From Paraspadella gotoi (taxonomy: Eukaryota > Animalia > Chaetognatha), in assembly GCA_051294375.1 (NCBI GenBank), contig CM119264.1, positions 15,969,245-16,033,244 on the forward strand: a stretch of 64,000 nucleotides of DNA. Reading direction: 5' to 3'. The notes beneath the pieces are model-generated. The model made no database searches. It was not told the DNA's origin and worked only from the letters and a program-made list of their open reading frames with translations. This document shows positions 9,536 through 57,874 of this stretch, in pieces; position 1 is the stretch's first letter; the number at the start of each line of letters is the position of its first letter. The position numbers were made by a program, and so were the translations under genes.

Positions 9536-10723
9536 TTACGAAGTATTTACTTAAACTTCTATTCATAATTATTATGTTATAAAAATTGGAGCCAATCAAA
9601 ACGTTGAATTGGAATTTTCTCTCTTATAATGCTTATTAAAGAATTTCTTTGATTTGTTTCAATGTAAACATAGTGAGAGGAAATAGGAAGGGAAAACAAG
9701 AAAAGGAGAAGTGGAGAGAATGAAAGAGAGGGTGAAAGGCAAAAAAACGAAGGCAAATTTGGAAAAAATAGTGAAACAATTGTAAGGTGAGAAAAGAAAG
9801 TAAAATGGAAAGAAAAAGAGGGGAAAAGAAAGGGAAAGAATGAAGATGAGAAAAAAAGGTGAGGAAAGTGCATGAGAGGCAGAAAAAGGTGGGGGCCGAA
9901 AAAATAGTAAGTGACAGCGTGAGAAGTAAGGGAGGAAAGAGGAAGAGGAAAATATTAAGAAAGAGAAGAAAAGAGGTGAAGAAAAATAATCAGGAAAAGC
10001 GTATGAAGGAAAAAAAAATGTAACAGATAATGTGGCGTCTTACCTAAATCTTTTGTATAAGTAATAGACATGAAGATTCTTATAAGGAATTCGATCTTTA
10101 AAAATTATCTGTACCATAAAAATTCAAGCATACTTATATCTAAAATTACGCAGTTAATGAGATTAGATAAACAATCATTGAAGAAATCATGTCTTACGAT
10201 ATTTTTAACTCATAGAAATTTACTTGGGAAGTTCTAAACTTGAGACAACCGGTTTGTTTTTAAATGAGGTGAGGTTCGTACTAAACCATGAGTATCAAGA
10301 AAGATGGTAATTAGTGAAGTTCAGATTTCGTTGTCTAAAAAACTGATTGTATGCTAAACCTTAACAAATTCATTAAATTTTTTGTTAATATAAAATTTTT
10401 TTCTAAATCTAAAAATGTAATAAAAAAGTTTAACACAATGTTTTATATATAGACTTTCGATTTCGTTGTTTTAGCATTTAGGAAAAGGAGAAGGAGAAGT
10501 AAGATTGTGAAAATGAAAAGAGAGAGAGAGAGAGACAATTAATTTCATTTGTCTCTCTCTCTCTCTCTCTCTTTTCATTTTCACAATCTTACTTCTCCTT
10601 CCCCTGTCCTTACCTTGAACTGTCCTCACATCTGACCACTATCTCTCACTCAATTCTTTGTTGGAATCTCTCTCTCTCTCTCACTAAACTCAACTTTCAC
10701 AGAGAAAATTGTTGTAAAATCAC

Positions 10724-11325: not shown

Positions 11326-11670
11326 AAACAATTTGTGAATTTTGGACAGTTTTTTGTGTGAAAGAAGGGGGGGGGAGAGAGAGAGAGAGAGAGAGAGAGA
11401 GGACAGTTTAAAAACTTTATTTGTTGTACATTTGAAATGTATTATTTTTCTCTCTCCCTGTCTCCCTCTCTCTCTCTCTCTCTCAATCTCTCTCACTCTG
11501 ACCATTTCATTTCCTATTCACAACTAAAATCTCTATTTGTCCTCATTCTTAACCTGTCCCTCACCACTTGACCACTATTCTTTCTCAACTCTGTGTTGGA
11601 AACTTTGCCCTGTCTCTCTCTCTCTCTCCCTTCTTTCACACAAAAAACTGTCCAAAATTCACAAATTGTT

Positions 11671-16305: not shown

Positions 16306-16805
16306 TAGCAAATTAGATGGAAGGCGCCTTGGCCTTTGCAGGTAGCAAGCCTCCCACTCAACCCTAACCAAGGCCCCGAGCAAAAATATTTACTGCGCTA
16401 CTGGTGCAAAAATTGCTACTTGCTAGGAACCAAAATTATCAGAAACCGCTTCGTTTTTTTAAATTTTTTTCTAAGCCTGGAGCGACATATCAAATAGGAG
16501 ATGAACAGGAGGACCGGGTGAGAAAAGGTTATTAAGAATTAGCGATAGCTGCAAGGTTAGGGTTTAGGGAAAGGCTTGTGCAAGAGACATTAAGATTAGG
16601 GTTTAGGTTTGGAAATGAATATAAGGCCAGGGCTAAGGTTTAGGGTTAAGGTTAGGGAGAGAAGGCCTATGTTAGGATTAGGGTTATCAAAGTAGCTTGC
16701 TGGAGAAGTCACAAACTGAGAAAACTGGTTAGGATTAAGGTTTTGATTAGAACCTGATTTAGGGTCAAGGTTGAGTGGGAGGTTTGCCTTCCATCTAATT
16801 CGCTA
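16306..16805. mobile_element. TIR element with internal degenerate TTAGGG-like repeats
   Basis: TAGCAAATTAGATGGAAGGC / GCCTTCCATCTAATTCGCTA ends, plus CCTCCCACTCAACC / GGTTGAGTGGGAGG. Confidence 0.65.
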
Positions 16806-17684: not shown

Positions 17685-17964
17685 CTAATTTTAACATGAT
17701 TTTTTTTATAATAATACTTTTTTAACCTTACTTATAAACCAAAACCAAAAATTTACTATCAAGGTTATTAATAACTTTATTTTGATTAATTTAGTGTTTA
17801 CTGGCTGAATAACCTGATTTTTTAAAACCGGAAGTGGTTCGACGCAAAAACTGGTCTGGAAAATCCATAATGAGCAATTGAGCATCCAGGGAATTTTTTT
17901 ATTGTCATATTCGTTTTCTCCACTAAATTTGGCACAAAAAAAAGTCCTAACGACTTCCCTCTGC

Positions 17965-18045
17965 GTTGGCAAAGCGAGACCGTCCTAGGGTAACCGCGAC
18001 AGTGACTGGATGCGTCACTGAGGGTCGGAAGCCCCCAAATCCAAC
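17965..18045 (+). ncRNA. Twister ribozyme-like motif, type P5, family D
   Basis: GTTGG caaa GCGA GA CCG TCCTAGGG TAA CCGC GA CAGTGAC-loop-GTCACTG aGGG T CGG AA GC CCCc aaat CCAAC; T1 CGG/CCG, P3 7 bp, P5 5 bp. Confidence 0.75.
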
Positions 18046-18049
18046 AGTG

Positions 18050-18772
18050 TAGGACTAAGCTCTGACGAACAAAGCCCGAGGTTTTTTTAATATATTCTTA
18101 TACCGGCCAAGGTAGAATGATGGCAATATTGTTAATATTAAGTTTCAAAAAAATCCTACCATAAATATAGAAAATATTAACCAAAATATTTGGAAAATTG
18201 ACCCCTTCTTTGGAAGATTTTTGCCATAGAAGATTTTTCCCGAATCTGACTCCCGGTTGAAAACTCTTAGAATTCCGATCGTTAGCTCCTCTTTTACTTT
18301 TACTTTAAAAAAAAATTTCACCAAAATGGACTAATTCACTTTACCATGATCGTATCATATCAAAATAACCAAATAAAATGTAAAGAAAAATTTTGAGAGC
18401 CCTTCAGACATATGGCTATCGGATTCCTGAATTTGAAGTTTATTGTAAAATCACAACATATGTTAAATGCGTTGACATTGTATTGAAGTTGAGAAATCCC
18501 TTTATTTTATATATAAAAATTGCGTCGAAAATATTTTCCCGAGCGGACCAGTCCATTTGAATCTGATGGTTTGATGTCAAAATGATGGTTATTTGTCAAG
18601 AGAAAAAAAATGCGAGCCCTTCAGATGCAACAGGATCGGAATCGAGTGTTTTTACATCTGTTTTTTACCTGAATTTTTCCCAGGGGCGTTGACATTATTT
18701 GGTAGTCAGATTTTAACGAAAATCTCCATTGAAAAAGTCTTCCTCGATTTCTAAGAACGACGTAGACTCCTA
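18050..18772 (+). mobile_element. Non-autonomous DNA element with 7-bp TSD
   Basis: TAGGA...TCCTA termini, TSD AACAGTG on both sides. Confidence 0.85.
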
Positions 18773-19126
18773 AACAGTGAGATTCCCCATCCCAATGGGC
18801 AGCACAGGCAACCCGGCTGTTACCAAAAAAGCATAAGGATCGTCGCAATCGCATAAGAAAAATCTGGATTGACGACAAATTTTGAAACTAAAAAAAGAAA
18901 ATTTGAGAAAAGAAAATTAAATTATAAACAGAAAGAAAGATTCTATTTTGTCAATAAAAAAAATTAATAAAGTACCGAAGCAAATTAAAGTAATAGTTTC
19001 TGAAAAAAAAACAAAAAAACTTTTTCATTGTTAAAATATTAACTGATCAGCAGACCCAGTGCCTAAGAAAGAAAACGGAATAAAAACCTGATGTTGCGAT
19101 TACAAAATGATAACATGCACGAATGC

Positions 19127-26720: not shown

Positions 26721-28211
26721 AATTTGAATAGTGATGAAAAGCTTAAAATCAGGTGATCAGACGATAAGACATAACCCTGTCATGTTCAGAAACGACTACT
26801 TAAAAATATTAACAAGTATGGCTTTTATCGTATGCAATAGAATGGGCGCGCATAAAAACGTAGTTGCTTAAAAATTTCTTTTGTTTTATTGTATGTAAAA
26901 GTAAAAAGCCAGAAAAAACGTTTGCCACTAATTTTATTATTGTATCTCAAATCGTTCAGACAGGGCAGGATGTTAAGTTTTGTCTCGATATAGGGTCCCA
27001 CCCTTGTAACTTAGGTAAACTCTTTTTCCTAAAGAATTCTTCCTCGTCTAATCGTATATTTGCTTGAAGCTTGATTTGTATTTGAAAAGATATGACTTAC
27101 TATATTCATAATTTCATTTTAAAGAGATTTTAAAAATAAAAAAAATAATTTGTGTAACAGAAAAATAAGAATTATTGAACTTCTCTAAAAAAATTTTAGT
27201 TTTAAAAGAGTCTACAATTCCTCGACTATTGATGTATATTATATAAGAGGGAAAAATTTAATAACATATTTTAAATTATAAATAATAGAGGAATCAACTT
27301 CGTGATCTTAGTTTTAATAATGATGAAGACAGTGAGAAAGAAAGAGAGAATAAATATTTAATGAATGACCTAAGGTTTGAGTGTTTATATATTAGTACAA
27401 CCAATATAAAAATTATCCATTCATTTAATAAACTATCTTGCCCCTGACTTTGGAGCTCGTGAAAATGTGGTAAAATTTTGAAAAAGCAAGATATTGACTC
27501 AACCATACTTAATTTGTATGCACCAAATGAAAATAATAATTAAATGAAATATCTATATTAGTCCAATCGAATCTCGTGAAGAAAGGAGAATGCATTTCGC
27601 CAGAATCTTCCGATCGGAGCACCGGATTCTCAAATCCGAGTTCGCGTTTATACGAATAATGTATATTATAAATATGATTTTTAAATTCATGAAAATTTTT
27701 TTATTATTTTCAGAATCTACACTTGATAAAGTATAGGAAAACTCGAGAGGTAGAGCTTAATTCGCTAATCGATCCAGCTTAATAATCAATTAGTGAAAGT
27801 TTTTTTTTTATTTAAACTCATTTCCACTCAAACGATTCCATCGAAACTTCATATCCAGCTCAATAACACTTCCCTAACCATATACGAAATTTTTTGCTAA
27901 GGTGGAACGGACGGACGGACAGAGACGGACGGACAGAGTTTTTTTTTTGCATAATTTATCATAATTCGATGTTCTGACATGATATAGGTGAATGCCTGAC
28001 AAGATTGGGGGGGCGGACCGACGGACTGACAAAGTGAATTATTGAGTCAGGATCTGCTGATAAGCAGATCCGACTAAAAATAATTGGAAAAAAAAGGGAA
28101 AAAAAAACGTACAAGTTTAAAGGGTAATGGTAAATGGTAAAATTTTACTTACACCGACCGGGGATTTGACGTATTTTGAAAAAATATTTAAAAACTATTT
28201 AAAAAATCTTA

Positions 28212-29928
28212 AAAGCATAAGGATCGTCGCAATCGCATAAGAAAAATCTGGATTGACGACAAATTTTGAAACTAAAAAAAAGAAAATTTGAGAAAAGAAA
28301 ATTAAATTATAAACAGAAAGAAAAATTATATTTTGCGATTGTCAATTAAAAAAAATAATAAAGTACCTAGGAAAATTAAAGTTAGTTTCTGAAAAAAAAA
28401 AGGAAAAGTTTTTTTGTCATTGTTAATTGTCATTGATCAGCAGACGCAGCCCTTGAGAAAAAAAATTTGAGAAAAGAAAATTAATTTATAAACAGAAAGA
28501 AAAGTTCTATTTTGTCAATAAAATAAAGTACCAAAGAAAATTAAAGTTAGTTTCTGAAAAAAAAAAAAAACAACTTTTTCATTGTTAAAATATTAACTGA
28601 TAAGCAGACGCAGTCCCTAAGAAAACAAGTTTGAGCAAACAATGTCAGATCTGCCCACGATTTATTAATTAATAAATAATTAATTATTTAATTAATCAAT
28701 AATTAATTTATTCAAGTTAATTATTTAATTAATTTATGCAATTAAATTGATCCAAAATGTTTGTTTTGATTGATTAACTGATTAATTAATTTTTGATTAA
28801 TTAATTGACTAATTAATTAATTAACTAATTAATTATTTGATTAATTAATACATCTTGCATTTACATGTAAAATAAAAAGAAAAAGAAGCATAATCAATTA
28901 GTGAAACAGGTTCTTTGTATTTTCCATTTAAACTCATTTCCACTCAAACTATTCCATCGAAACTTGATTTCCAGTTTAATCACATACTTTTCCACCCAAA
29001 TACAAAATTTAAAGTCATTCGCCCCATCCACTCATGAGCAATTGGTGTTCAAATAGTGAAATATATTTTTTTGTTTTTTCCATTTAATCTCATTTCCACT
29101 CGGACGTTCCATCGAAACTTCATATCCAGCTCAATCACACACTTCCCTACCCACACACAAAATTTCATCCAATCCATCCATCCAATCACGAGTAATGGGT
29201 GTTTTTTGCTAAGGTGGGATGGACGGACAAGACGGACGGACATCGTTTTTTTTGCATAATTTATATAATTGATGTTCTGACATGATATAAGTGAATGCCC
29301 GACAAGATTGAGGGGGCCGGGACCGGACGGACCGACAAAGTGAATTATAGAGGATAAAACGGAATAAAAACCTGATGTTGCGATAGCAAAATGATAACAT
29401 GCACAAATGCGATGCTTAATTTTACGAGTTCAATCCTAATTCAATTTTTGATTTAAAAAAAAAAAAAAGCAGAGAGAGAGAGAGAGAAAAGAAGGAAATC
29501 AAAAGGCAGCAGCAGAAGCAGCAGGAGAAAAGAGAGAAAAAGAAAGAGCCCCTGCAGAGCCAGCTGCAGACTCGTTTTTTTCCCCTATGATTATTAATCA
29601 GTGTCTAGGGAAAAGAGAGAGGGAGAGAAACATGTAATTAAAAGAGAAAAGAGAGAGAGAAAGAAATATGAAAATAAAAGAGAGAAAATTTGTTTGTTTT
29701 GATAAAATGTAAACAAAACATATTTAATAACTGTCCAGACTCAATTTTAAGCACATCGAAGATGAGAAGCTGTATATAAATTTTCAGCTTCATACACCCA
29801 AATTTAATCATAAAAAAGGTGATTTATAATTTGGAACACCGACAACAACGCCGACGACAATGACGACACTTATGCGCAAAAGCGTTACAATATCGTCGCA
29901 AACGCTTAGCGATTGCAACGATAAAAAA
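28212..29928 (-). mobile_element. HINE-like family 2 containing a family-1 copy (28624-29350)
   Basis: Same termini and body as 18827-22700. Confidence 0.65.
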
Positions 29929-31514: not shown

Positions 31515-33432
31515 TTTTTTAACACCGAAAAGTTTTTAATAGCGATCTTCCAGTATTATTCACATTGTAGGTATATTTTAATTTTTTTTTATTTAATAGA
31601 AAGACTTCTTTACTCCGCGTTTATTTTCTCAGTTTGGCATATGGAAGAGGTAAAAAAGGTAGTTGACTTTTTCACAGGTTAATTTTCGAGTGACAATTAC
31701 GAGCTTCCTGCCGATTTTTAAATTGATTGCGATCCCTGAGGTTCTTTGGTAAGTTTTTAAATTTTGTCTGGCAGTTATTTTTTTTCTTGGCAGTTTCCAA
31801 GATGTCCATGAGATGAAAATCATGAATATAAAAAGTTTACGAACACAGTCAGCAGAGTCGACGATGGATGAAGCGAAGAAAAATCCAGTATAACGACAAA
31901 ACGACGTTAAAAAGCGAAATTATACATAGATATATATAAATTTTATATATATTGTATTTTCATGGATATTGACTGGGATTTTTTTGGTTTCGATTCTGGC
32001 AACGAAAAATCTCCGCGCTTCCGGGAAGAAGAAACCGGTCCACGGAGTGATGAATCGAGGATAAAGAAAAGGGCGTTGATCAACTAAACGAAGGATGAAA
32101 GTTAATCCGGGTTGCGATGTGCGTGAATGGGGGAAGAATACAATTTCACTCGAAATTTCTCCATGCTGGCGGAACAGAAACCGAAAATTGTTGCTTATAA
32201 TAGTAAAATCCTAAAAATAAAGAAGAACAGGGAGATCCAGCTCTTTTGGGACTAACTTCAAGTGCTTACAGCACAGAAACGGTTTCAGATAGAAGATAAA
32301 ATCTTAAAAGTATCTCGCCAGACGTTACTATCAAAGAAAATTAATAAACAAGTTTGAGCAAACAATGACGGATCTGCCTACGATAATTAATTAATTAATC
32401 GATTAATTAATAAATTTTAATATGTAATAATTAATTTTAAATTTATATTCAACTTATCATCATCGATGTCCTTAAAATTGGGTTAGGACAGTTATTAAAT
32501 ATGTTTTGTTTACATTTTATCAAAACAAAATAATATCCTCTATTTTATTTTATGTCTCCTTCTCTCTCTCTCTCTATCTCTCACTCTCTCTCTCTCTCTT
32601 TTTATACAATTGCAACGATCTTTATGCTTTTAAGAATTTTTTAACTTGCATCATTTTTTCACATTAATTAATTAATTAATTAAAACATTTATTAATAATC
32701 ATTAGCTTTCTGGAAATATTTTTTTTCCTTTCGATTATGTTAGGAAGGTGTTTAAAAATGATCGAGAACGTAGTGTATCAAGATGGATTCAGATTTTTAA
32801 AAACGTTCACCCAAGTGATCACACACATATATACTTTAATTTAAAACCCCTTTTCGATTTGAAATTCTCAACATGAGAGATCCCGGTCGATTTTATCTGG
32901 CTCCTAAATTATGCAAATTAGCTTACGATCGAATTTGTCAGATAACGATGACGCTCTTTATTCGCGTAATTTTAAACGTTTTATTATTGTAATATAATCA
33001 ATAATTGAATATTTTAGTTTTTAGAATATATATTTTATAAATATAAATAGTTTATAGTATTTATACTAATATAACTAAGACAAAATAGCAATTAAATGAG
33101 AGCTTGAATGCTTTTTTTTCTTACCAAAATGAGATTTTTACATAAAATAAAATATTAACTATTTTGCTTGCTTAGGTTCCTTAATACATATAATATAATA
33201 TAAATTTCATTATAAATTGTATAATTCATTCGTTTAAGTTACCATTATACGTGCTTTAATAAATAGGTAAATATGGAAAAACTTGATAACAAAGATTAAA
33301 ATAACCAATAAAAATAAAATTTAAAAAAAAAAAATAATACTAATTATAATATTATCAAAAATATAAAATAATATTATTATAATATTTAAGAATTTAATAG
33401 ACATTGTGTAGGAGACGAATGGTCAAATTCCA

Positions 33433-34734
33433 ATGCTCGATGTGCTTATAAAGCGCAGAGAGGGCGGCTCATTGGAATTTTCAGTATATCGCAAACCGAC
33501 CCACACTGACCAATATATTCCCTTCGATTCGCATGCTCCCTTGTCACACAAGCTCGCCACGGTCAGGTCCCTTACCAGGAGAGCTCAACTGATTCCGTCG
33601 ACCCCCGAGCTCCAGGCCGCCGAGCTTGAGCATGTCAAAAGAGCCTTGGCGCTCAATGGTTACCCTCTGTGGGCATTCGAGAAGGCCAGGTTTCGGCTGA
33701 ACCAAGCTGAGGGCAGTGGCCACCAAGGGGCTGCCCAAGTAACCGCTGACGCAAGCTCAACCTCCGCCCCCCAGGAGGAAGAGCGAGGCCTTGCTGCCGA
33801 AGTACCAACAGCGCCCACCACAGCGCAACCGGGAGATAAGCAGAAGCGTCTCAAGACCGTAGGTCACTTGTCCCTCCCCTACCACCAGGGGATCACTGAA
33901 GCTTTGGTGCGGGTGCTAGCAAAGCAGGGGATCTCCACTTCAGTGACGACCCGCGGCTCTTTACGTGAGCAATTGGTGAAACCGAAAGACAAAATCCCCA
34001 GACCGAAAACATCAGGAGCCGTCTATTGGGCGGCCTGTGCAGGGGCGGGCAACCAAGCCTGCACAGCAGCATACGTGGGTGAGACAGGGAAGTCTCTATC
34101 AGATCGGTTCCAACAGCACAAGAAGCCGTATAAAGACAGTCGAGGCCACTACCTGTCGGCCATAGCAGAACATTCGGCCAATACGGGCCATCTGTTTAGA
34201 GAAACTGACTGTCTCATGCTGTCCCATGACCAAAACTGGTTCTCAAGAGGTATTAGAGAGGCAATTTACATCAAAGCCCTCGAGCCCTCTCTGAACCGTG
34301 ATGGAGGACGATTCGAGCTCCCTCCAAGCTACGATTCGCTCATCAAGTTGGCGGTGGAACACCCTACACCACCCCAACCGCACGGTGATTCCCCTGTCCC
34401 CACTCAACGGGTCAGGCGGAGGCCTCTCAGCAGGCAATGGACGTCCGATGCCTCTCCTGAGCCTACAGCAACTTGGTGTGACCCTTCTCACACTGAGCGT
34501 CGACCAAAACGACGGCTGCAGGAGGAAGGAGAGGAGTCTGTATCACCTGCATCCAAGCAGGCAAGAACAGGCAATCGCCCACCTCACCGGCAGGTGAGAG
34601 GAGGGCAGTCGGCAGGCTTATCAGGCCAAAGAGATATTCGAGTGGCACTCGGCATCTTCCCAAGTGGATCACTACCCGATCCCAGGGTGTCGAACTCTAC
34701 AAAAATATCTTCTCAGCCTTTGACAGGTCAATGA
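33433..34734 (+). CDS. Penelope RT thumb + GIY-YIG endonuclease (truncated ORF)
   Basis: IPMLDV, VYRKPTHTDQY, NGYP, LPY, GAVY..C..C..AYVGETG..L..RF..H, SAIAEH, REAIYI..PSLNRDGG. Confidence 0.93.
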   Translation: MLDVLIKRREGGSLEFSVYRKPTHTDQYIPFDSHAPLSHKLATVRSLTRRAQLIPSTPELQAAELEHVKRALALNGYPLWAFEKARFRLNQAEGSGHQGAAQVTADASSTSAPQEEERGLAAEVPTAPTTAQPGDKQKRLKTVGHLSLPYHQGITEALVRVLAKQGISTSVTTRGSLREQLVKPKDKIPRPKTSGAVYWAACAGAGNQACTAAYVGETGKSLSDRFQQHKKPYKDSRGHYLSAIAEHSANTGHLFRETDCLMLSHDQNWFSRGIREAIYIKALEPSLNRDGGRFELPPSYDSLIKLAVEHPTPPQPHGDSPVPTQRVRRRPLSRQWTSDASPEPTATWCDPSHTERRPKRRLQEEGEESVSPASKQARTGNRPPHRQVRGGQSAGLSGQRDIRVALGIFPSGSLPDPRVSNSTKISSQPLTGQ

Positions 34735-35937: not shown

Positions 35938-36169
35938 TGAAGAGACAGTAATTATTGTTGTGTTAGTGACAGAACCGTTCAATATAAGCAGTCCCTGAGC
36001 TTCGGATCAGGCTGTAATACCAGGTTACAGGCGGGTTAAGCGCTCCGTCCCTCTTAACTGCCAGACGACCACCGGGCTAGAACCCCGGACCTTTGGGTTG
36101 GGAGGCGAATGACTTGCCTCCGGCACCAATGGCCGCTGATTAACGGTTGGTGGATTTTAGTCCACCATA
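35938..36169 (-). mobile_element. Solo-LTR-like unit with tRNA-like head and twister, family A copy 1
   Basis: 232 bp, TA...CA on the minus strand, 4-bp TSD TGTC; tRNA-like segment 36065-36136. Confidence 0.85.
35988..36061 (-). ncRNA. Twister ribozyme-like motif, type P5, family A
   Basis: GCAGTT AA GAGG GA CGG AGCGCT TAA CCC GC CTGTAA-loop-TTACAG CCTGA T CCG AA GC TCAGG GACTGC; predicted cleavage between 36038 and 36037. Confidence 0.82.
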
Positions 36170-36766: not shown

Positions 36767-37000
36767 TGAAGAGACAGTTATTATTGTTATGTGCTAGTAA
36801 CAGAACCTTTCAATATAAGCAGTCCCTGAGCTTTGGATCAGGCTGTAACACCGTGTTACAGGCGGGTTAAGCGCCCCGTCCCTCTTAACTGCTAGGCGGC
36901 CACCGGGCTAGAACCCTGGACCTATGGGTTGAGAGGCGAATGACTTGCCTCCGGCACCAATGACCGCTGATGAACGGTTGGTGGATTTCAGTCCACCATA
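36767..37000 (-). mobile_element. Family A solo-LTR-like copy 2
   Basis: Homologous to 35938-36169, with its own 4-bp TSD AAGG. Confidence 0.85.
36819..36892 (-). ncRNA. Twister-like motif, family A copy 2
   Basis: Same fold; T1 loop CCA versus CGG (one mismatch), P1 GGCGCT, P3 CTGTAACA/TGTTACAG. Confidence 0.75.
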
Positions 37001-38938
37001 AAGGGGATAAAATTGTAATCAAATCATATCTGTTTAAAGCATTTATGTTTTTGTATAAACATTGTCATTGTTAAAAAAATTTCATCTTTTATTAAATATT
37101 AATTATATTTATTGTTATTTATCATTTGACTACATAAGATCATATTTTATATTAATTTCTCTTTAAATATATGTTCAGACTGAATTTCAGTACAGCTAAA
37201 CAAAAAATAGCGATTAATTTCTAAAATGTTTTCCTATCATTTAAGTAAACAGACAGGGATTTCAATATGAAACCAAAGTGGAATTTTATTCTCAGAAAAT
37301 AGACAAGAGAAGACGGTGTCAATTTTCAAACAGAGTGAATCAAAGCAGAAACAGAGGCTATTTATAATGGGCAAGTAGACGAAGCCAGATTCCTCTTCCG
37401 GAATCCTCCTCTTCCTCTTCTGGAACCTTCTTTTCCTCTTCCGGAAACTATTGTTCCTTTTCTGGATTTGGCTTCCAAAATCCCGTTCGAAATCATTCCA
37501 GAATCTTCTTCCTCTTCCGGAATCCTCTTCCTTAATCCTTTCCTCTGTTTCCGGGTTTCATTCATCTGTGATGCTATAAAAAACAGAAAAAAACTATTAA
37601 AAATCACAACATGCAGCTACTAAAAACTCATAAAATTATTAAGCATTATGAAGTTATTAATAAAACATAGAAAATATTATTAATAATACATATGTTATTA
37701 AAAAAACTTACTTAACTCATCGTCAGATTTCACAGGGAAAAGATGCTCTTTTTATGAAAAATTCGCGAATATCCGCCAGGTTCGCTAGTATCTTTTGTTC
37801 TATTTGACCGGCTTGACCGGTCTTTAACATTAAAAAGATACGAAATGACGTATTCGATCTCGGGATCTCTTATGTTCGATGCATTAAACTTAAATATTTT
37901 TATACGAAAATTATTTATTTATACGTCTGATTAAGTGTGCAAACGTTTTTTATGAAACTCGATGTCTGTATATTACTAACTTTTGGGTCTACGAGAAGTT
38001 TGGCGACTTATTCAGTGATTGAGTAGGAAATAAAGTTTTGATGGAATCGTCCAGATGGAAATGAGTAAAAATAGAAAAACTATTTTATACGTGAAATTAG
38101 TACAACCAATATAAAAATTATCCATTCATTTAATAAATGAACAGACTTTGGTAGTTTAAGGCCTCCATCACTCTTAAAAGATAATGACATAGCAGTTCCA
38201 TGCAAGCTTTCAATGTCATATGATAAGAACGATAAAAACCTTATTTTTCATGACAAAAAAAAAAATTTAAAATTTTAAAATGCAAAAGAACGCATTTGGA
38301 TTCCTTGCAAAAAGTTTCTAAAAGAAAGTATAATTCTTTTTTGAAAAACATTTCATTAAGTTGGTCAAAAATATAAAAAACTATATTTAAGATGCCGATT
38401 TTTAATTTCCAGTTTAAAAATATAGTTTTTTGTAATTTTAACTTACTTAATGACATAATTTTTGAAAAAGATTTATATTTTCTTTTAACAACTTTTTATG
38501 AGGAATCTGAATCTGTTCTCAGAATTTTGAAAAAACCATTTTGAAATTTTAACATTATATAAGGCTAGTACAAAAAGGCTATACAAAATAAGCTGACTGG
38601 GTTACAAGAAAATAAAAAAAAAACAAAAAAAAACTACAGATAAGTATTCACTAATATGATAGTTTGGCTTCAAGTTTGGCTTACAGATTAAGAAATATAA
38701 TAAAAATTTACATGGGTAAGCTTCGCCACGTTAACTTGCACCGTATCTACACATAATATTATATTTATTTAAAAAATTGGATAGATAAATTGAAATGAAA
38801 TTTTGTGTATAGGTACTGGGTAGGAAAGTGGAAATGAGTGGAAAAGAGTTTAAAATATAAAACCAAAAGACACATTTATTTCAATTTTTAAAAGTTTCTC
38901 TCTATCTCTCTCTGGTATAATTGATTGAAAGATTGATT

Positions 38939-39869: not shown

Positions 39870-40164
39870 ACAAAAATTCATTGGTCCTTCCGTCCCTAAG
39901 TTGACGTCGATGTGGATAAGGCTGCCAAGTGCCCACTCAGCAGCACTGGAACGGGTCCTGGGCTTGGAACCAGGCTTAGGGGTTTCCCAGGCCCCCAAGG
40001 CGGTTTACGGCTATCCTCACGCTTCCCGCAGGGGAGGTACCAGGTTGGGATTGAACCCGGTACCTAGTGGTCATGAGCAGATGGCTTTACTCAATGAGCC
40101 ACAGGGTCACAAGTGAAGGTGTCATGCTTATAAACGGGGTGAACTTGGGCAATGCCCGACTACA
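39870..40164 (-). mobile_element. LTR-like unit with TATA, tRNA-like head and twister, family B (MRPL39 intron 3)
   Basis: Starts TGTAGTCGG; TATAA; A box TGGCTCATTGAG, B box GGTTCAATCCC; 3' end and TSD not resolved. Confidence 0.65.
39951..40029 (-). ncRNA. Twister ribozyme-like motif, type P5, family B
   Basis: GCGGG AA GCGT GA GGA TAGCCG TAA ACC GC CTTGGGGG-loop-CCCCTAAG CCTGG T TCC AA GC CCAGG A CCCGT; T1 TCC/GGA. Confidence 0.82.
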
Positions 40165-43605: not shown

Positions 43606-44838
43606 AAACTAAAAAAGCAATCGCATAAAAAAATCTGTACCCATGACAAACTTTGATACTAAAACAAAAAATCATATTTGATACAGGAAACTAAATTTTA
43701 TACATAACAAACTTGGCTTAATATAAAAAACAATAAATAAATACATAATTCATAAAATTCATCTCCTTGTATTTTGATGCTAGTGTGGACTGTGGAGTAC
43801 AATAAGTATTCCCCGATCAAATACTTAAGGGAGTGGTCTTTTCATACAATTGAAACATTCTTTGAAATATTTTCCACTTCATTGATAGGGAAGCCAGGTA
43901 CTCTGGGAGTTATTAAACGAAACTGTGAGAGAGTCTTGATTGAAAGCTTGCAGGGACCTGCTATGTCATTATCTTATAAGAATGATGGAGGCCTTAAACC
44001 ACCAAAGCCTGTTGGACATAAACTCTCGTCGTAATCCGTCGATCTTATTTACCTTTTGTAAAAGTGTTTAAAAATATAAACAATCGATATTTGTTTACAA
44101 ACAATACAGTTCATCGTTATTTCATTGCTTTGTTTAATCATGATTTCATTCGTTACAGATCGAATTAATATTAATTAGCCATCGTCGGGGTTTAGTATTG
44201 GTTTTGTATTGGTCTACATTATTTGTATTGAGTGGCTAAGCCGAGCTTACCTGAGAGGTCATTGCTATTATTATTGCTTACCGATGCTTGCTCTATTGCT
44301 TTCTTCGAGTTCTTGTTTTATAAAGACTCGTTAAACCCTGCGATATTGATTCTCTCAGAAGGTTGAGCAAGAGACGGAAGCTGAGCAAGAGACGGAAAAC
44401 CCAGCTCATCAAGCCTGTTCAAAGTCAGGGGCAAGATAGATTATTTATTAAATGAATGGATAATTTTTATATTGGTTGTCCCAATTTTATAAATATAAAT
44501 CAACATAAATAAATAAATAAAAATGAAATGAAATAAATGAATAAAATAAAATAAATTAAATGAATGAAATAAATTGAATGAATGAATTAAATTTATTTAA
44601 TTTAAATAAATGAAATAATTGAGATAAATAAATTTTATTGAATAAATATATTTAAATGTAAAAACTGAATGAATTAAATTGAACGAATTAAATTGATTTA
44701 ATTTAATTTCTAAAAATTGAATGAATAAATAAGTGAGAGATAAAAATAAATTTGAGCAATGATAATTTAGCGGTAATCAGCTAATCTGATGATAAATCAC
44801 GATATTTCTTTTAATTTGTGATCCTAACTGATCATTAA

Positions 44839-47570: not shown

Positions 47571-47778
47571 TATGGTAAAATCCACCAACCGTTCATCAGC
47601 GGCCATTGGTGCCGGAGGCAGGTTATTCGCCTCCCAACCCAAAGGGGTTTCTAGTCGGGTGGTCTCCGAGCAGTTAAGAAGAGGGATGGGGCACTTAACC
47701 CACCTGTAACATGGTGTTACAGCCTGATCCGAAGCTCAGGGTTCTGTCACTAACACAACAATAATTACTGTCTCTTCA
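47571..47778 (+). mobile_element. Family A solo-LTR-like copy 3 with decayed twister (47670-47741)
   Basis: TATGG...CTCTTCA, flanks AGTG/CGTG; small deletions and CpG-type transitions. Confidence 0.8.
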
Positions 47779-48822: not shown

Positions 48823-51800
48823 CTATTCGAGTAATCGATTCAAGACTTCGATCTGAGTCACAAAAGGTAAAATCCTCATCGCAATGAGAATCGTTTTGCG
48901 AAACAAACGCGATGAACAAGGCGCCCCAGATAGTCTACCCGTGTCATTTTTATTGTCATGACATATTTGACCGCTTTTATTTCGATTTCGATTCGATACC
49001 ATATCCACCTGACTCCTTGCTCCAGATGCCAGTTTCAAGAAGAAGAGAAATACCGGGTCACGATCGGCGTCCGCGGAATTAAATCCCGACAATTTTTTAG
49101 CGGCTAAGCGGCCTGTGAATTCGGCGATGCGGAGAATGATGAAAAGGCTGAAGTGAAAGCCGGATTCTTCGTTTAGAGAACGAACGTTTATGAAATCTAT
49201 TAGAGTCGAGTAAAGTTGAACAAAATTCATGACGATTAGATGGGAGCATTCAGATGATTTTCCCGCTGCGATATGAATCCCGGCATGTTCTAACGTAAAT
49301 AACAAGCGCCACGCATTAGTTACCATTCGCCCAACAATAAACCACGGTCGAAGTATTTGGGTGTCGTATTCCCGAAGGAATTTCAGAGGGGAATCCGAAT
49401 CCTCGTTCACCTCTGGAGCAATCCAATTTTTTTCGACCGCATCGAGCATAAAAGCGACGATTCCTCTGCAGCGATTCTTATCGAGAGTCTTGATGAGAGT
49501 TGCTAGAATCGTAATCGCAGAAACTTCATCGAGACAGCCAGTGACGGTTTTGTCGGAGCAGCCCAAAGATGGGTGGAGAGAGGCCGCCGCCACGAACAAA
49601 TGGATCCAATCCTCAGTTCCTCGCGGTGACGCCAATGAAGTCCAAAGCGTCTTAGATGCTTCTATCGCGTTTCGGCATTTTGGTTCTATCGCGGTAGAGG
49701 CTTCAATAAAGGCCGCGGCCGTTGAAAATGAAAAAGATTGGAGAATAAAGGAAGTCAGCCATGCAAACGAATCATCGCTTGTGGGCAAAGATAGAGCCAA
49801 AGATGCAGCTAACCTCGTGGCTTCCGTCTTAAGATAAACGTCGGGGAGGAAATGAAGCGTCGAAGAGTCCACGATTCTCAGGAGGCGCATTATGACGTCA
49901 AAGGGTTCAGCGATGAGTGTCAGCCACTTACACGCAGCACGTCCTTTTCGCGTGAGGTTTACCAGAAGTTCTAAGCTAAAAGACGCGGATGGGTTGGCAG
50001 GGTCGAGAAAGGCTACAAGAAAATCCATAATAATTCTCTTTGCAGTCGAATAGAATGGACGTGAAGGGTCGTGGCGAAAACGAGGTTGAAAAGCTGTGAG
50101 CGTCTCGACAATAAAGTGCTTAAAGCAGAATCGCTCCTTCTCAGTCAGAGAGACATTAAAAGATAAAAAAATATCGCGAAGAAAGTCAAAAAAGACATGC
50201 CCTACGCCACCCTTTTTATCGCTTTCGCCGTTTTCAACGCTCATCACCAAAAAAGGAATACGATCGATAATCTGTAAAACTGCGACAGATTTTTCTGTTG
50301 ACGTCAAAATTTGGCGGAAAAGTAGTTCAGCCGTTCGTCTGGCGTCTTTTAAGCAAAGGTCCAGGATTCTATTCAAAGAAACTTGAAACTCTTTGAGGAG
50401 CGAGGAATCAACGAGTCGATTCAACATAATTGTGGCTGCCTGTTCGAATTCGGTAATAGCTTCGTTGTTGGTGGGCAGAAGAAAATTAACGAGCGTTACG
50501 TTCGATTGTAGCCAAAAAAGAAAACGGACTTTCTGTTTGATAGATGAGGCTGTGAAAGACGTTATGAAAATAGATTTTAAATGTTGGGCTACTGCCGGAT
50601 CGGCGATTGCCGTCGTTGCCAATAATTCCTTCATTAACCCTTCTTCTAAAGCAAACAATTCACAGTTGACGCAGAAAAACTCGGAATATTCTGACAACCA
50701 AAGGGAGTCCTTAACGACCTGGCGCATGCAGGCAATCCTCAGATGTTTAGGAGAAGAACGGCTAATGAGCAGTTCCATTATGCTAGTCTTTGTAGGTTTA
50801 ATCGCGAATAGGTACTCTTCTCTTGCGACGGATATAACTTTCAAAAATTTCAGCAAAAAAATTTCAATATCTGGAGTCTTCAGCTCCGTTAAGAATATAA
50901 GGTTAATGGCCGAGCGAACCGTCTGGACTAGAGATTCCTCCTTTTCACGGATAAAAGCTGTTTCAGATAGACCAAAATTAATTGGTGTTGAAGCTCGAAA
51001 AAATTCCTCAAGAGACACAAGAAACTTGGAATTACAAAGACGCGTCAACGTTGTTTTTAACAATCGAGACACCATCCAATGATGATTCTTATTCATCGGA
51101 TGAATGTCTTTGGTGGACGAATAAGTCAACATTGTGTCCGGTGGATTCTCTGCCAGGTCCTCATCGATTTTGCTAGAAATGAAGCGCGATGCTTTGCCAA
51201 GCTTTTTTGACATCTTCTCTGTCTGATATATAACATTGTTAGCGGTTGTGAAAGAAAACTGGAACTCTAAATTTTGGTCGCCTCCACCATGTACCTGCCC
51301 TAAAAGATCAAGTAGGTCATTCTGAGTTTGCTTCAAAAAATCGCGATGGATCCAGTACAAGGGAAAAAGGGAAGCCGCGCTTCTTGGAGGGGTCCCTAAT
51401 TGAGCCTCTTTCCAACACACGATTAATGTGACCAACAGCTCGAAAACGATGCCGGTAGAAGCGTGAGAAAGCCAATCAGCTTCAACCATAACAATTAATT
51501 GTCTAATTAGCGACAGAAAATTTTCGTCGTCATTTTCTCCGAAGACGAGAGTATTTTGAAATATAGCGAGAAAATGGAAGAAGGAGACAAGTCTTGGGAA
51601 TGAGTTTAGATCGCTGTCGGATTCCATCTCCACCAAAAATGATGGCCATACATCCGCCTGCAATGCCGGTTCCAGTTGCAACACTGCCTTTGCCAGAGCT
51701 CGGACCCATTCCGTCCCAGCTGATCGGGTGAGCTCCGACAAAAAATTCGGGGGAAAGCGAGAGATGGAGTTTACAGCGCCCTCCAGCGCCGAACCGTCGT

Positions 51801-52080
51801 GGCGGGAAGCTACTAGAGTCGCGGTACGGGCGTGCATGCGCACATGTTTTTCGACAAGCACGGCGGCGAGAATGAGGCGCCACTCGGCGACAGAATATTC
51901 CGACGAGGCAACGGCGACGACTTGTTCGAGGGTAACCGCGACTCGCGAAACAAGAGACGGGTCCCAATCCTCGGGGTGGTCTTCACAAAGAGACGACTTC
52001 CAGGAGCAATTCCTGGAAGAGGCATCGGTTCGCAAAAAGGCACTCTGAAGATGTAAGAACTCAGATCGACATTCGAACAT
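48823..52080 (-). CDS. GEMIN4: Gem-associated protein 4 (SMN complex), intronless 1085 aa
   Basis: Colinear similarity with recalled human Gemin4 (L.xxFL..D/E...DW, EFEQAATIMLNRL vs GFQEDLNTTFNQL, WLTLIAEPFDVIMRL vs WLQTCSPFPLLFSL) and similar length. Confidence 0.75.
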   Translation of the reverse strand: MFECRSEFLHLQSAFLRTDASSRNCSWKSSLCEDHPEDWDPSLVSRVAVTLEQVVAVASSEYSVAEWRLILAAVLVEKHVRMHARTATLVASRHDGSALEGAVNSISRFPPNFLSELTRSAGTEWVRALAKAVLQLEPALQADVWPSFLVEMESDSDLNSFPRLVSFFHFLAIFQNTLVFGENDDENFLSLIRQLIVMVEADWLSHASTGIVFELLVTLIVCWKEAQLGTPPRSAASLFPLYWIHRDFLKQTQNDLLDLLGQVHGGGDQNLEFQFSFTTANNVIYQTEKMSKKLGKASRFISSKIDEDLAENPPDTMLTYSSTKDIHPMNKNHHWMVSRLLKTTLTRLCNSKFLVSLEEFFRASTPINFGLSETAFIREKEESLVQTVRSAINLIFLTELKTPDIEIFLLKFLKVISVAREEYLFAIKPTKTSIMELLISRSSPKHLRIACMRQVVKDSLWLSEYSEFFCVNCELFALEEGLMKELLATTAIADPAVAQHLKSIFITSFTASSIKQKVRFLFWLQSNVTLVNFLLPTNNEAITEFEQAATIMLNRLVDSSLLKEFQVSLNRILDLCLKDARRTAELLFRQILTSTEKSVAVLQIIDRIPFLVMSVENGESDKKGGVGHVFFDFLRDIFLSFNVSLTEKERFCFKHFIVETLTAFQPRFRHDPSRPFYSTAKRIIMDFLVAFLDPANPSASFSLELLVNLTRKGRAACKWLTLIAEPFDVIMRLLRIVDSSTLHFLPDVYLKTEATRLAASLALSLPTSDDSFAWLTSFILQSFSFSTAAAFIEASTAIEPKCRNAIEASKTLWTSLASPRGTEDWIHLFVAAASLHPSLGCSDKTVTGCLDEVSAITILATLIKTLDKNRCRGIVAFMLDAVEKNWIAPEVNEDSDSPLKFLREYDTQILRPWFIVGRMVTNAWRLLFTLEHAGIHIAAGKSSECSHLIVMNFVQLYSTLIDFINVRSLNEESGFHFSLFIILRIAEFTGRLAAKKLSGFNSADADRDPVFLFFLKLASGARSQVDMVSNRNRNKSGQICHDNKNDTGRLSGAPCSSRLFRKTILIAMRILPFVTQIEVLNRLLE

Positions 52081-52862
52081 GTCTTTATTTTAGCTATAAA
52101 AAAATAAAAGAAATGAGAATGGTAGAAAACGAAAGGCGCGGTTCAAAATCCGGCACATTTTCTGTTTTGAGCGTCAGTTTCGCTCTGCCTACTAAAAATT
52201 GTGCAGTCATTTGAAGAAATACGACACAATATTACTATATTAGGGGGAAACTAACTCAGTAAGGTGGTTAAGAAATTTGAATTAAGCACCTGCTCAAACG
52301 AAAATTTAAACATTTTTTAAAAAAAATTGAATAGATAAATTTTTTTAATATTACTCCATATATTAATTTTTTAATATTTATTTATTTATTTTTTATTTTT
52401 AAGATCAGATTCAGGTAGATTGCAAAAAGTTGTCTACACAAAGTATAATTCTTTTTTGTATATTTTGATCATAAGTGTATGAAAAATATGAAAAACTATT
52501 TATAATCATCATCATCATCATTTTTCGATTATTTTATTACTTTTTCTTAATTTTGACCAAGAAAACCTAAATATTTTTGAAAGTTGTAGTTAAATTTTTT
52601 ATTTAACTTTTTATGCTCTATCAGAATCCATCAAAAAAAGATTGATTAAAAATTTTTTTTATCATGATATATTAATATTGTAATTTTAATAGCAACAATA
52701 AAAGCATTAAAATCGAACACTTTTTAAAAATTCTTTTTTTACCTAAAAGTAGACTTCAAGACTAAAGTTTTGAACCCCCGCCCCTATTGATTTTTAACTA
52801 TATATAATCAAAACAATAATAATTTTCGTATCCTAAATAAAGCATTTTATAAATAAGTATTT

Positions 52863-57795: not shown

Positions 57796-57874
57796 TTGCA
57801 AGTAAGCCGGACGGGACGTCTAACCCACCTTTAGTGGCCGACTACAGGCAGATACAAAGTTCTGAAGTCAGCAA
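57796..57874 (+). ncRNA. Degenerate twister-like motif, family C, behind a decayed tRNA-like head
   Basis: AA GCCG GA CGG GACGTC TAA CCC AC CTTTAGT-loop-ACTACAG gCAGA T ACA AA GT TCTG; T1 is broken, T2 is AC/GT. Confidence 0.55.

Follow-up and report, generated by a model that had tools for sequence, protein, structure and literature searches.

A candidate type-P5 twister domain in a truncated, transposon-split SINE-like repeat of the chaetognath Paraspadella gotoi

A split repeat copy at 17943–18825

Twister is among the most widespread self-cleaving ribozymes, and the class was reportedly defined by Roth et al. in 2014. Here, we describe a locus in the chaetognath Paraspadella gotoi at which a short dispersed repeat may carry such a ribozyme. 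The DNA analyzed, referred to below as the window, is a stretch of 64,000 nucleotides (GenBank assembly GCA_051294375.1, contig CM119264.1, positions 15,969,245 to 16,033,244 of the forward strand), and all positions given here are counted from its first letter. It is AT-rich (33% G+C) and eukaryote-like. Between 17943 and 18825, the window holds a copy of a high-copy repeat resembling a short interspersed nuclear element (SINE), which we call family C; this copy is truncated at its 5′ end and split by a transposon (Table 1). Our preferred explanation, which we consider reasonably probable, is that its central 81 bases represent a twister of the circularly permuted type P5, predicted to cut between U17991 and A17992 in the intact master elements and likely to do so as a dimer.

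Table 1. Coordinates of the family C copy, its twister-like domain, the inserted transposon, and the sister copies in the window.
Feature	Position	Strand	Remarks
First part of family C SINE-like repeat	17943–18049	+	5′-truncated, without tRNA-like head; from contig coverage
SINE tail of family C	18780–18825	+	Ends ...GGCUGUUACCA; motif TGGGCA..GGCA..CC; contigs run from 18042 into 18773–18825
Possible target duplication of SINE copy, CAAAAAA(AA)	17935–17943, repeat 18824–18830		Weak, low-complexity
Twister-like domain, type-P5 order	17965–18045	+	P5 3′ half, AAA, P2, GA, T1′, P1, UAA, P2, L2, P3, P4/L4, P5 5′ half
P5 strand GUUGGC	17965–17970	+	Pairs with 18040–18045; five Watson–Crick pairs in the window
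AAA, P2 3′ strand GCGA, then GA	17971–17979	+	Layout as in the table of PMC8501958 and the Rfam Twister-P5 consensus
T1′ CCG	17980–17982	+	Pseudoknot T1; three Watson–Crick pairs with CGG 18026–18028 of the loop
P1 position UCCUAGGG	17983–17990	+	Self-complementary: CCUAGG flanked by U·G
L1 UAA	17991–17993	+	Predicted cut U17991/A17992, placed from the twister consensus (PMC8501958; PMC5408937)
P2 5′ strand CCGC, then L2 GA	17994–17999	+	Family majority has GC at L2, giving T2
P3 hairpin CAGUGAC/GUCACUG	18000–18020	+	7 bp with 7-nt loop; 18000–18006 with 18014–18020
P4 GGG/CCC with loop L4 U-CGG-AA-GC	18022–18035	+	P4 18022–18024 with 18033–18035; L4 18025–18032
P5 strand (U)CCAAC	18040–18045	+	Hand parse
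Class II cut-and-paste element	18050–18772		723 bp, non-coding; termini TAGGAC...CTCCTA; inserted in the SINE copy
Left target duplication AACAGTG	18043–18049		7 bp; read from the sequence
Right target duplication AACAGTG	18773–18779		7 bp; read from the sequence
Second copy of class II element	~23381–22761	−	Own 7-bp duplication TTTAGTC
Third copy of class II element	~22418–21912	−	Own 7-bp duplication AATTACA
Family A domains (A1, A2, third)	36061–35988, 36892–36819, 47670–47747	−, −, +	Whole element about 230 bp
Family A whole elements	36169–35938, 37000–36767, 47576–47778	−, −, +	tRNA-like head, B box GGTTCTAGCCC, then twister-like domain
Family B domain	40029–39951	−	T1 UCC/GGA, 8-bp P3
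Family B SINE copy	40115–39920	−	tRNA-like head, B box GGTTCAATCCC, twister-like domain, tail with TGGGCACTTGGCAGCC
Diverged copy	57798–57868	+	26.9 bits, E 9e-6; P1 palindrome GACGUC; T2 AC/GU
Half copy, 5′ half only	38126–38181	−	E 0.008; AGGCCU palindrome; 3-bp P2 fully paired

The abundance of the repeat is evident from public sequencing runs under the same organism label (coded X1, X2, X5, and X10), which were aligned to the region as contigs. The 107 bases from 17943 to 18049 are covered by 2,224 contigs in X1, 1,601 in X2, 596 in X5, and 131 in X10. In X1, the depth of single contigs was around 130 to 250, and the summed depth reached up to 1.8 million, a figure that does not give a copy number; we infer that there are thousands of family C copies. 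Both 17943–18049 and 18773–18825 belong to this very abundant repeat.

Several contigs (11 in X1, 7 in X2, 4 in X10, and 1 in X9, a run labelled with another organism) pass straight from 18042 to 18773 and lack the 730 bases between, and seven letters at the joint fit either side. Given these joined contigs, the 723-bp element did split this family C copy. A preliminary description of the locus had proposed a DNA transposon with a 7-bp target-site duplication at this place, and both the joined contigs and the 7-bp duplications found at three copies of the element bear this out. All three copies end (T/C)AGGAC...CTCCT(A/G), with very short terminal inverted repeats (YAGGA...TCCTR), and the element is abundant, as hundreds of run contigs align to it. 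From these features, it reads as a non-autonomous cut-and-paste transposon.

Past 18825, the loose ends of the contigs are diverse and AT-rich, with an agreement of 0.46 to 0.48, and it is because the flanks of other copies are so diverse and AT-rich beyond this point that we place the end of family C there. The tail carries the motif TGGGCA..GGCA..CC at 18796–18814, which recurs in the family B tail at 39935–39920 on the minus strand; the resemblance between the two tails had been anticipated correctly. On the other side, 132 X1 contigs run past 17943 in the 5′ direction into sequence not found in the window, and their 30-letter consensus holds a B-box-like GTGTTCCATCC that closely resembles the B boxes in the sister copies described below. 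The earlier suggestion that a tRNA head has been lost thus holds for this copy, as the family continues upstream in others. The head was probably removed by 5′ truncation of the kind that target-primed reverse transcription would leave. Many dispersed copies, diverse 3′ flanks, and a 5′-truncated copy in the window are the traits of a tRNA-derived SINE. No long terminal repeat ends were seen for the family C element, and the rest of the window holds no matching tail of the kind that a partner long interspersed nuclear element would share with it.

Directly 3′ of the tail, a 75-bp stretch (18827–18900) recurs 9.4 kb downstream at 28211–28285 with 98.7% identity, which indicates that the family C copy sits beside or inside another repeat.

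The twister-like domain of family C

Published descriptions give the twister class three essential helices (P1, P2, and P4), two optional ones (P3 and P5), and two pseudoknots, T1 and T2, together with 10 or more bases of L1 and L4 that are strongly conserved and a cut on the 5′ side of a conserved A (PMC5408937). The segment table given for schistosome twisters yields the type-P5 order once it is permuted (PMC8501958). Because MAFFT aligned family C to its sister families in the wrong register, the helix table of the twister-like domains was built by hand from the coordinates.

In this hand parse, the plus strand from 17965 to 18045 fits a circularly permuted, type-P5 twister in which the partners of P5, P2, P3, P4, and T1 are all present. 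The five pairs of P5 are formed by GUUGG (17965–17969) and CCAAC (18041–18045). A sixth pair, C17970–G18040, exists only in copies with G at 18040, which are represented by 42 contigs in X1 and 32 in X2; the loose contig ends preceding 18773 in these copies read ...AAAGCC. G17978 occupies the place of the catalytic guanine of twister, and the GA to which it belongs lies immediately 5′ of the T1′ strand CCG at 17980–17982. P2 (CCGC/GCGA) consists of three Watson–Crick pairs and one C·A, the latter at the pair proximal to L1. A single A separates P3 from the GGG of P4, and CAAA separates the CCC of P4 from the P5 strand UCCAAC. The minimum-energy fold of the 81-base domain recovers P5, P2, P3, and P4. 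The preliminary description had placed the fold here on the strength of the CGG/CCG pairing of T1, the 7-bp P3, and the GUUGG/CCAAC P5, all of which we find at the same positions, and had allowed for one or two mismatches in P2 and T2, which turn out to be the C·A in P2 and a GA in place of GC in L2.

This second mismatch is the sole defect of the core: at 17998–17999, the window copy reads GA where the canonical GC is expected, so A17999 breaks T2. The family as a whole does not share the defect. Over 17943–18049, the runs depart from the window copy at no more than three positions when changes reaching 2% of the depth are counted. One is 17999, where C replaces A in 901,634 of the 913,578 depth in X1 (98.7%) and in 99.6 to 99.9% in X2, X5, and X10; the change turns the L2 GA into GC and restores the canonical T2. 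The other two, 18007 T>A (4–17%) and 18011 T>G (67–92%), both fall in the loop of P3, and at P1 (17983–17990), no variant reaches 2% across the family. Hence, the conserved twister nucleotides of L1, L2, and L4 (UAA, GA, GC, and U..AAGC) are all present in the family C majority, and the window copy falls short of them only by the C of L2; the conserved AAA between the first P5 strand and P2 is likewise in place. Similarly, T1 with its three Watson–Crick pairs is present, and T2, broken in the window copy, is intact in the majority. A consensus without the core nucleotides of twister would have spoken against the assignment from the outset; what we find is a consensus that keeps all of them, repairs 17999 as well, and is a better twister than the copy from which the domain was recognized. 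As for that copy, it is headless, its T2 is broken, and 723 bp are inserted between its P5 and its tail, so we regard it as a relic that is most likely dead.

Sister families with the same architecture

Motif scans, together with a covariance model derived from three copies, located at least five sister copies in the window, belonging to families A and B and to one further type, plus a half copy (Table 1). A weaker match to the covariance model lies at 43972–44016 on the plus strand (18.2 bits). In families A and B, tRNA-like arms and matches to the B box stand just upstream of the domain on the same strand; ARAGORN called no tRNA in the window. The copies are solitary and dispersed, and even A1 and A2, which are around 830 bp apart, have unrelated sequence between them.

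According to the hand-made helix table, the order of segments in A and B is the same as in family C, and UAA, GA, GC, and U..AAGC are unchanged among the families compared. Around these constant elements, the helices change on both strands. T1 (L4/T1′) is CGG/CCG in family C, CCG/CGG in A, and UCC/GGA in B; P5 is GUUGG/CCAAC, GCAGU/ACUGC, and GCGGG/CCCGU, respectively; and P3 has 7, 7, and 8 bp of unrelated sequence. P4 has 5 bp in both A and B, and family A shows the palindrome AGCGCU at P1. T2 is intact in A1, A2, and B. Individual family A copies have their own lesions: 36819–36892 has a mutated T1 (CCA), 47670–47747 has AC at L2 and a mutated P1, and 35988–36061 has one C·A mismatch in P3.

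The pairing was also counted on six sister copies with family C left out; for the nested helices, this count is not independent of the model that produced the alignment. Pairs form in 90.2% of the cells, compared with 77.6 ± 2.1% after shuffling (0 of 500 shuffles reached the observed value), double-sided changes occur in 13 of the 24 pairs, and partners slid out of register pair in 27 to 43%. T1 and T2 are absent from the alignment model, yet two of the three T1 pairs show double changes, and T2 shows one, the AC/GU of the copy at 57798.

The domain had been described as belonging to a third family, and in the sense that A, B, and the further copies share an architecture while differing in their T1 pairings, we can agree. 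Family C shares the architecture of its sisters, with no demonstrable sequence homology to them.

Chance resemblance

Two descriptors were used to estimate how often such a core would arise by chance. The core descriptor in type-P5 order, which was partly modelled on the family C site itself and asks for neither P3 nor P5, has one match in the window and seven in 300 block shuffles. A smaller descriptor (a 3-bp P4 with U-NNN-AAGC, GA followed by the complement of NNN, and UAA 4 to 12 bases on) has three sites in the window compared with a mean of 0.14 per shuffle, and none of 500 shuffles reached three. All three sites also carry a 7-bp P3 and a P5, neither of which was asked for. A scan of the window for twisters in type-P1 order returned only AT-rich noise. 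It is therefore unlikely that the family C core is a product of chance.

Outside the window, a 17-base core pattern matched 47 metagenome loci, which we dismiss as chance since none extends past 31 bases aligned by BLAST, and a 22-base pattern had no match in the genome-contig collection scanned.

A palindrome in place of P1

The P1 position is the most unusual part of the domain. The hexamers found there, (U)CCUAGG(G) in family C, AGCGCU in family A, GACGUC in the copy at 57798, and AGGCCU in the half copy at 38126, are all perfect palindromes; UAGCCG in family B is not. Four different hexamer palindromes in five types, each with a chance of 1 in 64, are far from what chance would give. A palindrome without a loop cannot form P1 within one molecule, and UCCUAGGG drawn as a hairpin has at most two pairs around a palindromic tetraloop. 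This suggests cutting as a dimer, in which the P1 helix would arise by pairing of one SINE RNA with another, or of adjacent copies carried on a single transcript. There is a precedent in hammerheads with a one-pair helix III and a palindromic tetraloop, which are weak cutters as monomers and efficient ones as dimers (PMC7229834).

The sequence of events may then be envisaged as follows. A SINE RNA made by RNA polymerase III from the tRNA-like head would fold its domain into a twister with two pseudoknots, and the folded domain is predicted to cleave itself between U17991 and A17992. Cutting would depend on dimerization, in the manner of those amphibian and schistosome repeats whose hammerheads have a short helix III. 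When two domains were cofolded, family A used the palindrome duplex and family C did not. For this reason, the dimer-dependent "double twister" is the most speculative step of the scheme.

Weighing the explanations

Several observations count against a working twister at this site. To begin with the helices, P2 of family C is imperfect, with three Watson–Crick pairs and a C·A compared with the four pairs of twister, and P2 of families A and B has a 5′ strand of only three bases with two Watson–Crick pairs; an altered length of P2 may disturb the twister active site (PMC5408937). P4 of family C has three pairs compared with four in solved twisters (PMC5408937), and P1 cannot form a normal hairpin, having two pairs and a 4-nt loop in family C and a single pair in family A. 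Models of known twisters respond little. Rfam searches of the whole window gave no match at the gathering thresholds and no twister at E values up to 10, and a focused scan of family A gave no twister match. Family C, searched within 201 bases, has a local match to the Rfam twister-P1 model over P3 and P4 (14.9 bits, E 1.4), and family B is the only copy with a full-length match to Twister-P5 (17.1 bits, E 0.19), which is below the gathering threshold of 37.6. The best twister scores are thus 14.9 to 17.1 bits compared with Rfam gathering thresholds of 37.6 to 67.2. Family C obtains 7.8 and 7.4 bits (E 6.9 and 6.8) from the covariance models of its sisters and ranks 11th of 12 and 16th of 22 in the respective searches, which is noise level; these matches end exactly on the hand parse, at 17965/6 and 18044/5. 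Folding energies are no better than those of shuffled sequences (z = −0.47 for 81 nt and +0.42 for 106 nt), and the cofolding of family C mentioned above left its palindrome unused. Finally, no footprint of cleavage is visible in the genome: no pile of copies starts at 17992 among the loose ends listed, and contig depth shows no step at the predicted cut site.

Much of this would be expected if the domain were derived from a twister, or only shaped like one, and served as a non-cutting structural module, one that might dimerize the RNA via the palindrome, stabilize it, or let the reverse transcriptase of a partner element recognize it. The imperfect P2, the short P4, the want of a real P1, the Rfam scores far under threshold, and the failure to see a cleavage footprint all fit such a module, and a ribozyme that cuts the promoter head off the tail looks costly for a SINE. 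Nevertheless, we think this account, though a serious rival, rather unlikely, as every nucleotide of the chemistry is kept in the family C majority and in the sisters (the A 3′ of the cut, the guanine of GA, the AAGC of L4, and the GC of L2), and T1 and T2 are maintained by compensatory changes, whereas a mere scaffold needs neither. Moreover, twisters tolerate the loss of P1 with reduced activity (PMC8501958). It seems very improbable, in turn, that the domain is a 5′-processing twister of the Perere-3/RTE kind, with copies that begin at the cut site. Although such 5′ twisters have the only documented eukaryotic role (PMC8501958; PMC7761336), the ribozyme here is internal and permuted, family C extends 5′ of the cut by 78 bases or more (counting from 17943 plus the 30-letter consensus), the domains of the sister families are preceded by a tRNA-like head in the same orientation, and the loose ends listed show no pile at 17992. 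We give just as little credence to a retrozyme-like maker of circles, in which tandem elements would be cut by two twisters and the unit RNA circularized by a tRNA ligase. The hammerhead retrozymes of animal non-LTR (long terminal repeat) elements work in this way (PMC7229834), and one contig of X9 passes the 3′ end with letters that are not AT-rich, but the copies in the window are solitary and dispersed without head-to-tail arrays, and beyond 18825 the family C copies have diverse flanks. Least credible of all is an accidental resemblance, arising where an AT-rich genome has a GC-rich island. The Rfam E values of 1.4 and 0.19 are non-significant alone and the folding z-scores are ordinary, but the shuffle controls of both descriptors speak against it, the family majority restores the single missing core base, and several families that look unrelated repeat the architecture, with compensatory changes, beside tRNA-like heads.

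A type-P5 twister within a SINE therefore remains the explanation that we prefer, and the element is likely to belong to a new sort of ribozyme-carrying SINE. A broader proposal is that there is a superfamily of tRNA-headed SINEs with a permuted twister core, a "double twister" whose P1 forms only between two RNAs, so that cutting would be switched by concentration or by read-through from a neighbour. We offer it tentatively and think it rather doubtful; if true, some long-unexplained conserved SINE core domains could be ribozymes.

Other features of the window

Two long open reading frames lie elsewhere in the window. The first (33412–34734, plus strand) encodes 440 amino acids within an island of 55 to 63% G+C; its product matched no Pfam family even at E values up to 10, and its middle part looks, as an unconfirmed impression, like the GIY-YIG nuclease end of a Penelope-like element. 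The second (48823–52089, minus strand) is uninterrupted over 1,088 amino acids. Its product matched no Pfam family and has one homologue among 5.8 billion clusters, with 28% identity over 37%, and its atlas neighbours are large helical-repeat proteins (Urb2, Epg5, and MMS22L) with weak scores. In addition, there is a degenerate run of TTAGGG/TTTAGGG-like, telomere-type repeats at 16520–16700 (plus strand), and long GA/TC-rich inverted repeats at 10473–10617 and 11356–11511 score as plant-type microRNA precursors in Rfam, all below the gathering threshold. The latter are probably low-complexity hairpins.

Comparison with known systems

In the body of literature searched, none of the papers places a twister within a tRNA-derived SINE. 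In the searchable supplements of PMC4758252, none of the three L4 loops occurs in a twister context in the mollusc SINE consensus sequences; a single match to an L4 loop sits in a tRNA head, and we rejected it.

As a fold, the domain is most readily compared with Rfam Twister-P5 (RF02684). The two have in common the succession of a P2 strand, GA, T1′, P1, (U)AA, a P2 strand, GC, and a P4 with U-NNN-AAGC, as well as the two pseudoknots, an optional P3, and P5 at the ends. They differ in that the hairpin of P1 is replaced here by a palindromic hexamer or octamer without a loop, that P2 contains a C·A and P4 has three pairs, with scores far below gathering, and that P5 is closed by the remaining SINE RNA in a high-copy eukaryotic repeat. 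The thresholds of Rfam miss all of these families, which suggests that genome surveys undercount twisters.

The only eukaryotic role documented for twister is the trimming of the 5′ end of RTE-type retrotransposons (PMC8501958; PMC7761336). The T-variant twisters of Perere-3 and other RTE elements also place a twister core in a many-copy retrotransposon family, but they are of type P1 and lie at the extreme 5′ end, where the target duplication supplies one strand of P1 and the cut site is where their copies begin (PMC8501958; PMC7761336). The families described here follow another design, in which the catalytic core is permuted and internal, just after a tRNA-like promoter, and is found in several many-copy SINE families.

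With the retrozyme hammerheads of amphibians and other animals, the domain shares a cut-site helix of one or two pairs around a palindromic tetraloop (PMC7229834). The catalytic fold is a different one, the dependence on dimers would be a matter of analogy in our case, and the window holds no tandem arrays. At the level of the whole element, the closest analogue may be seen in the SINE-like hammerhead elements Sm-alpha and Sj-alpha of schistosomes, which are many-copy, short non-coding retroposons in which a polymerase III-type promoter precedes a small self-cleaving ribozyme motif (PMC6765202). Those elements carry a hammerhead (PMC6765202), whereas the domain here is twister-like and occurs as dispersed single copies and not in arrays. 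If it is active, the domain would give a conserved SINE core a testable function, and the elements that carry it would parallel the Sm-alpha and retrozyme repeats with a twister in place of the hammerhead, in which case two unrelated ribozyme folds would have converged on a crippled cut-site helix capped by a palindrome.

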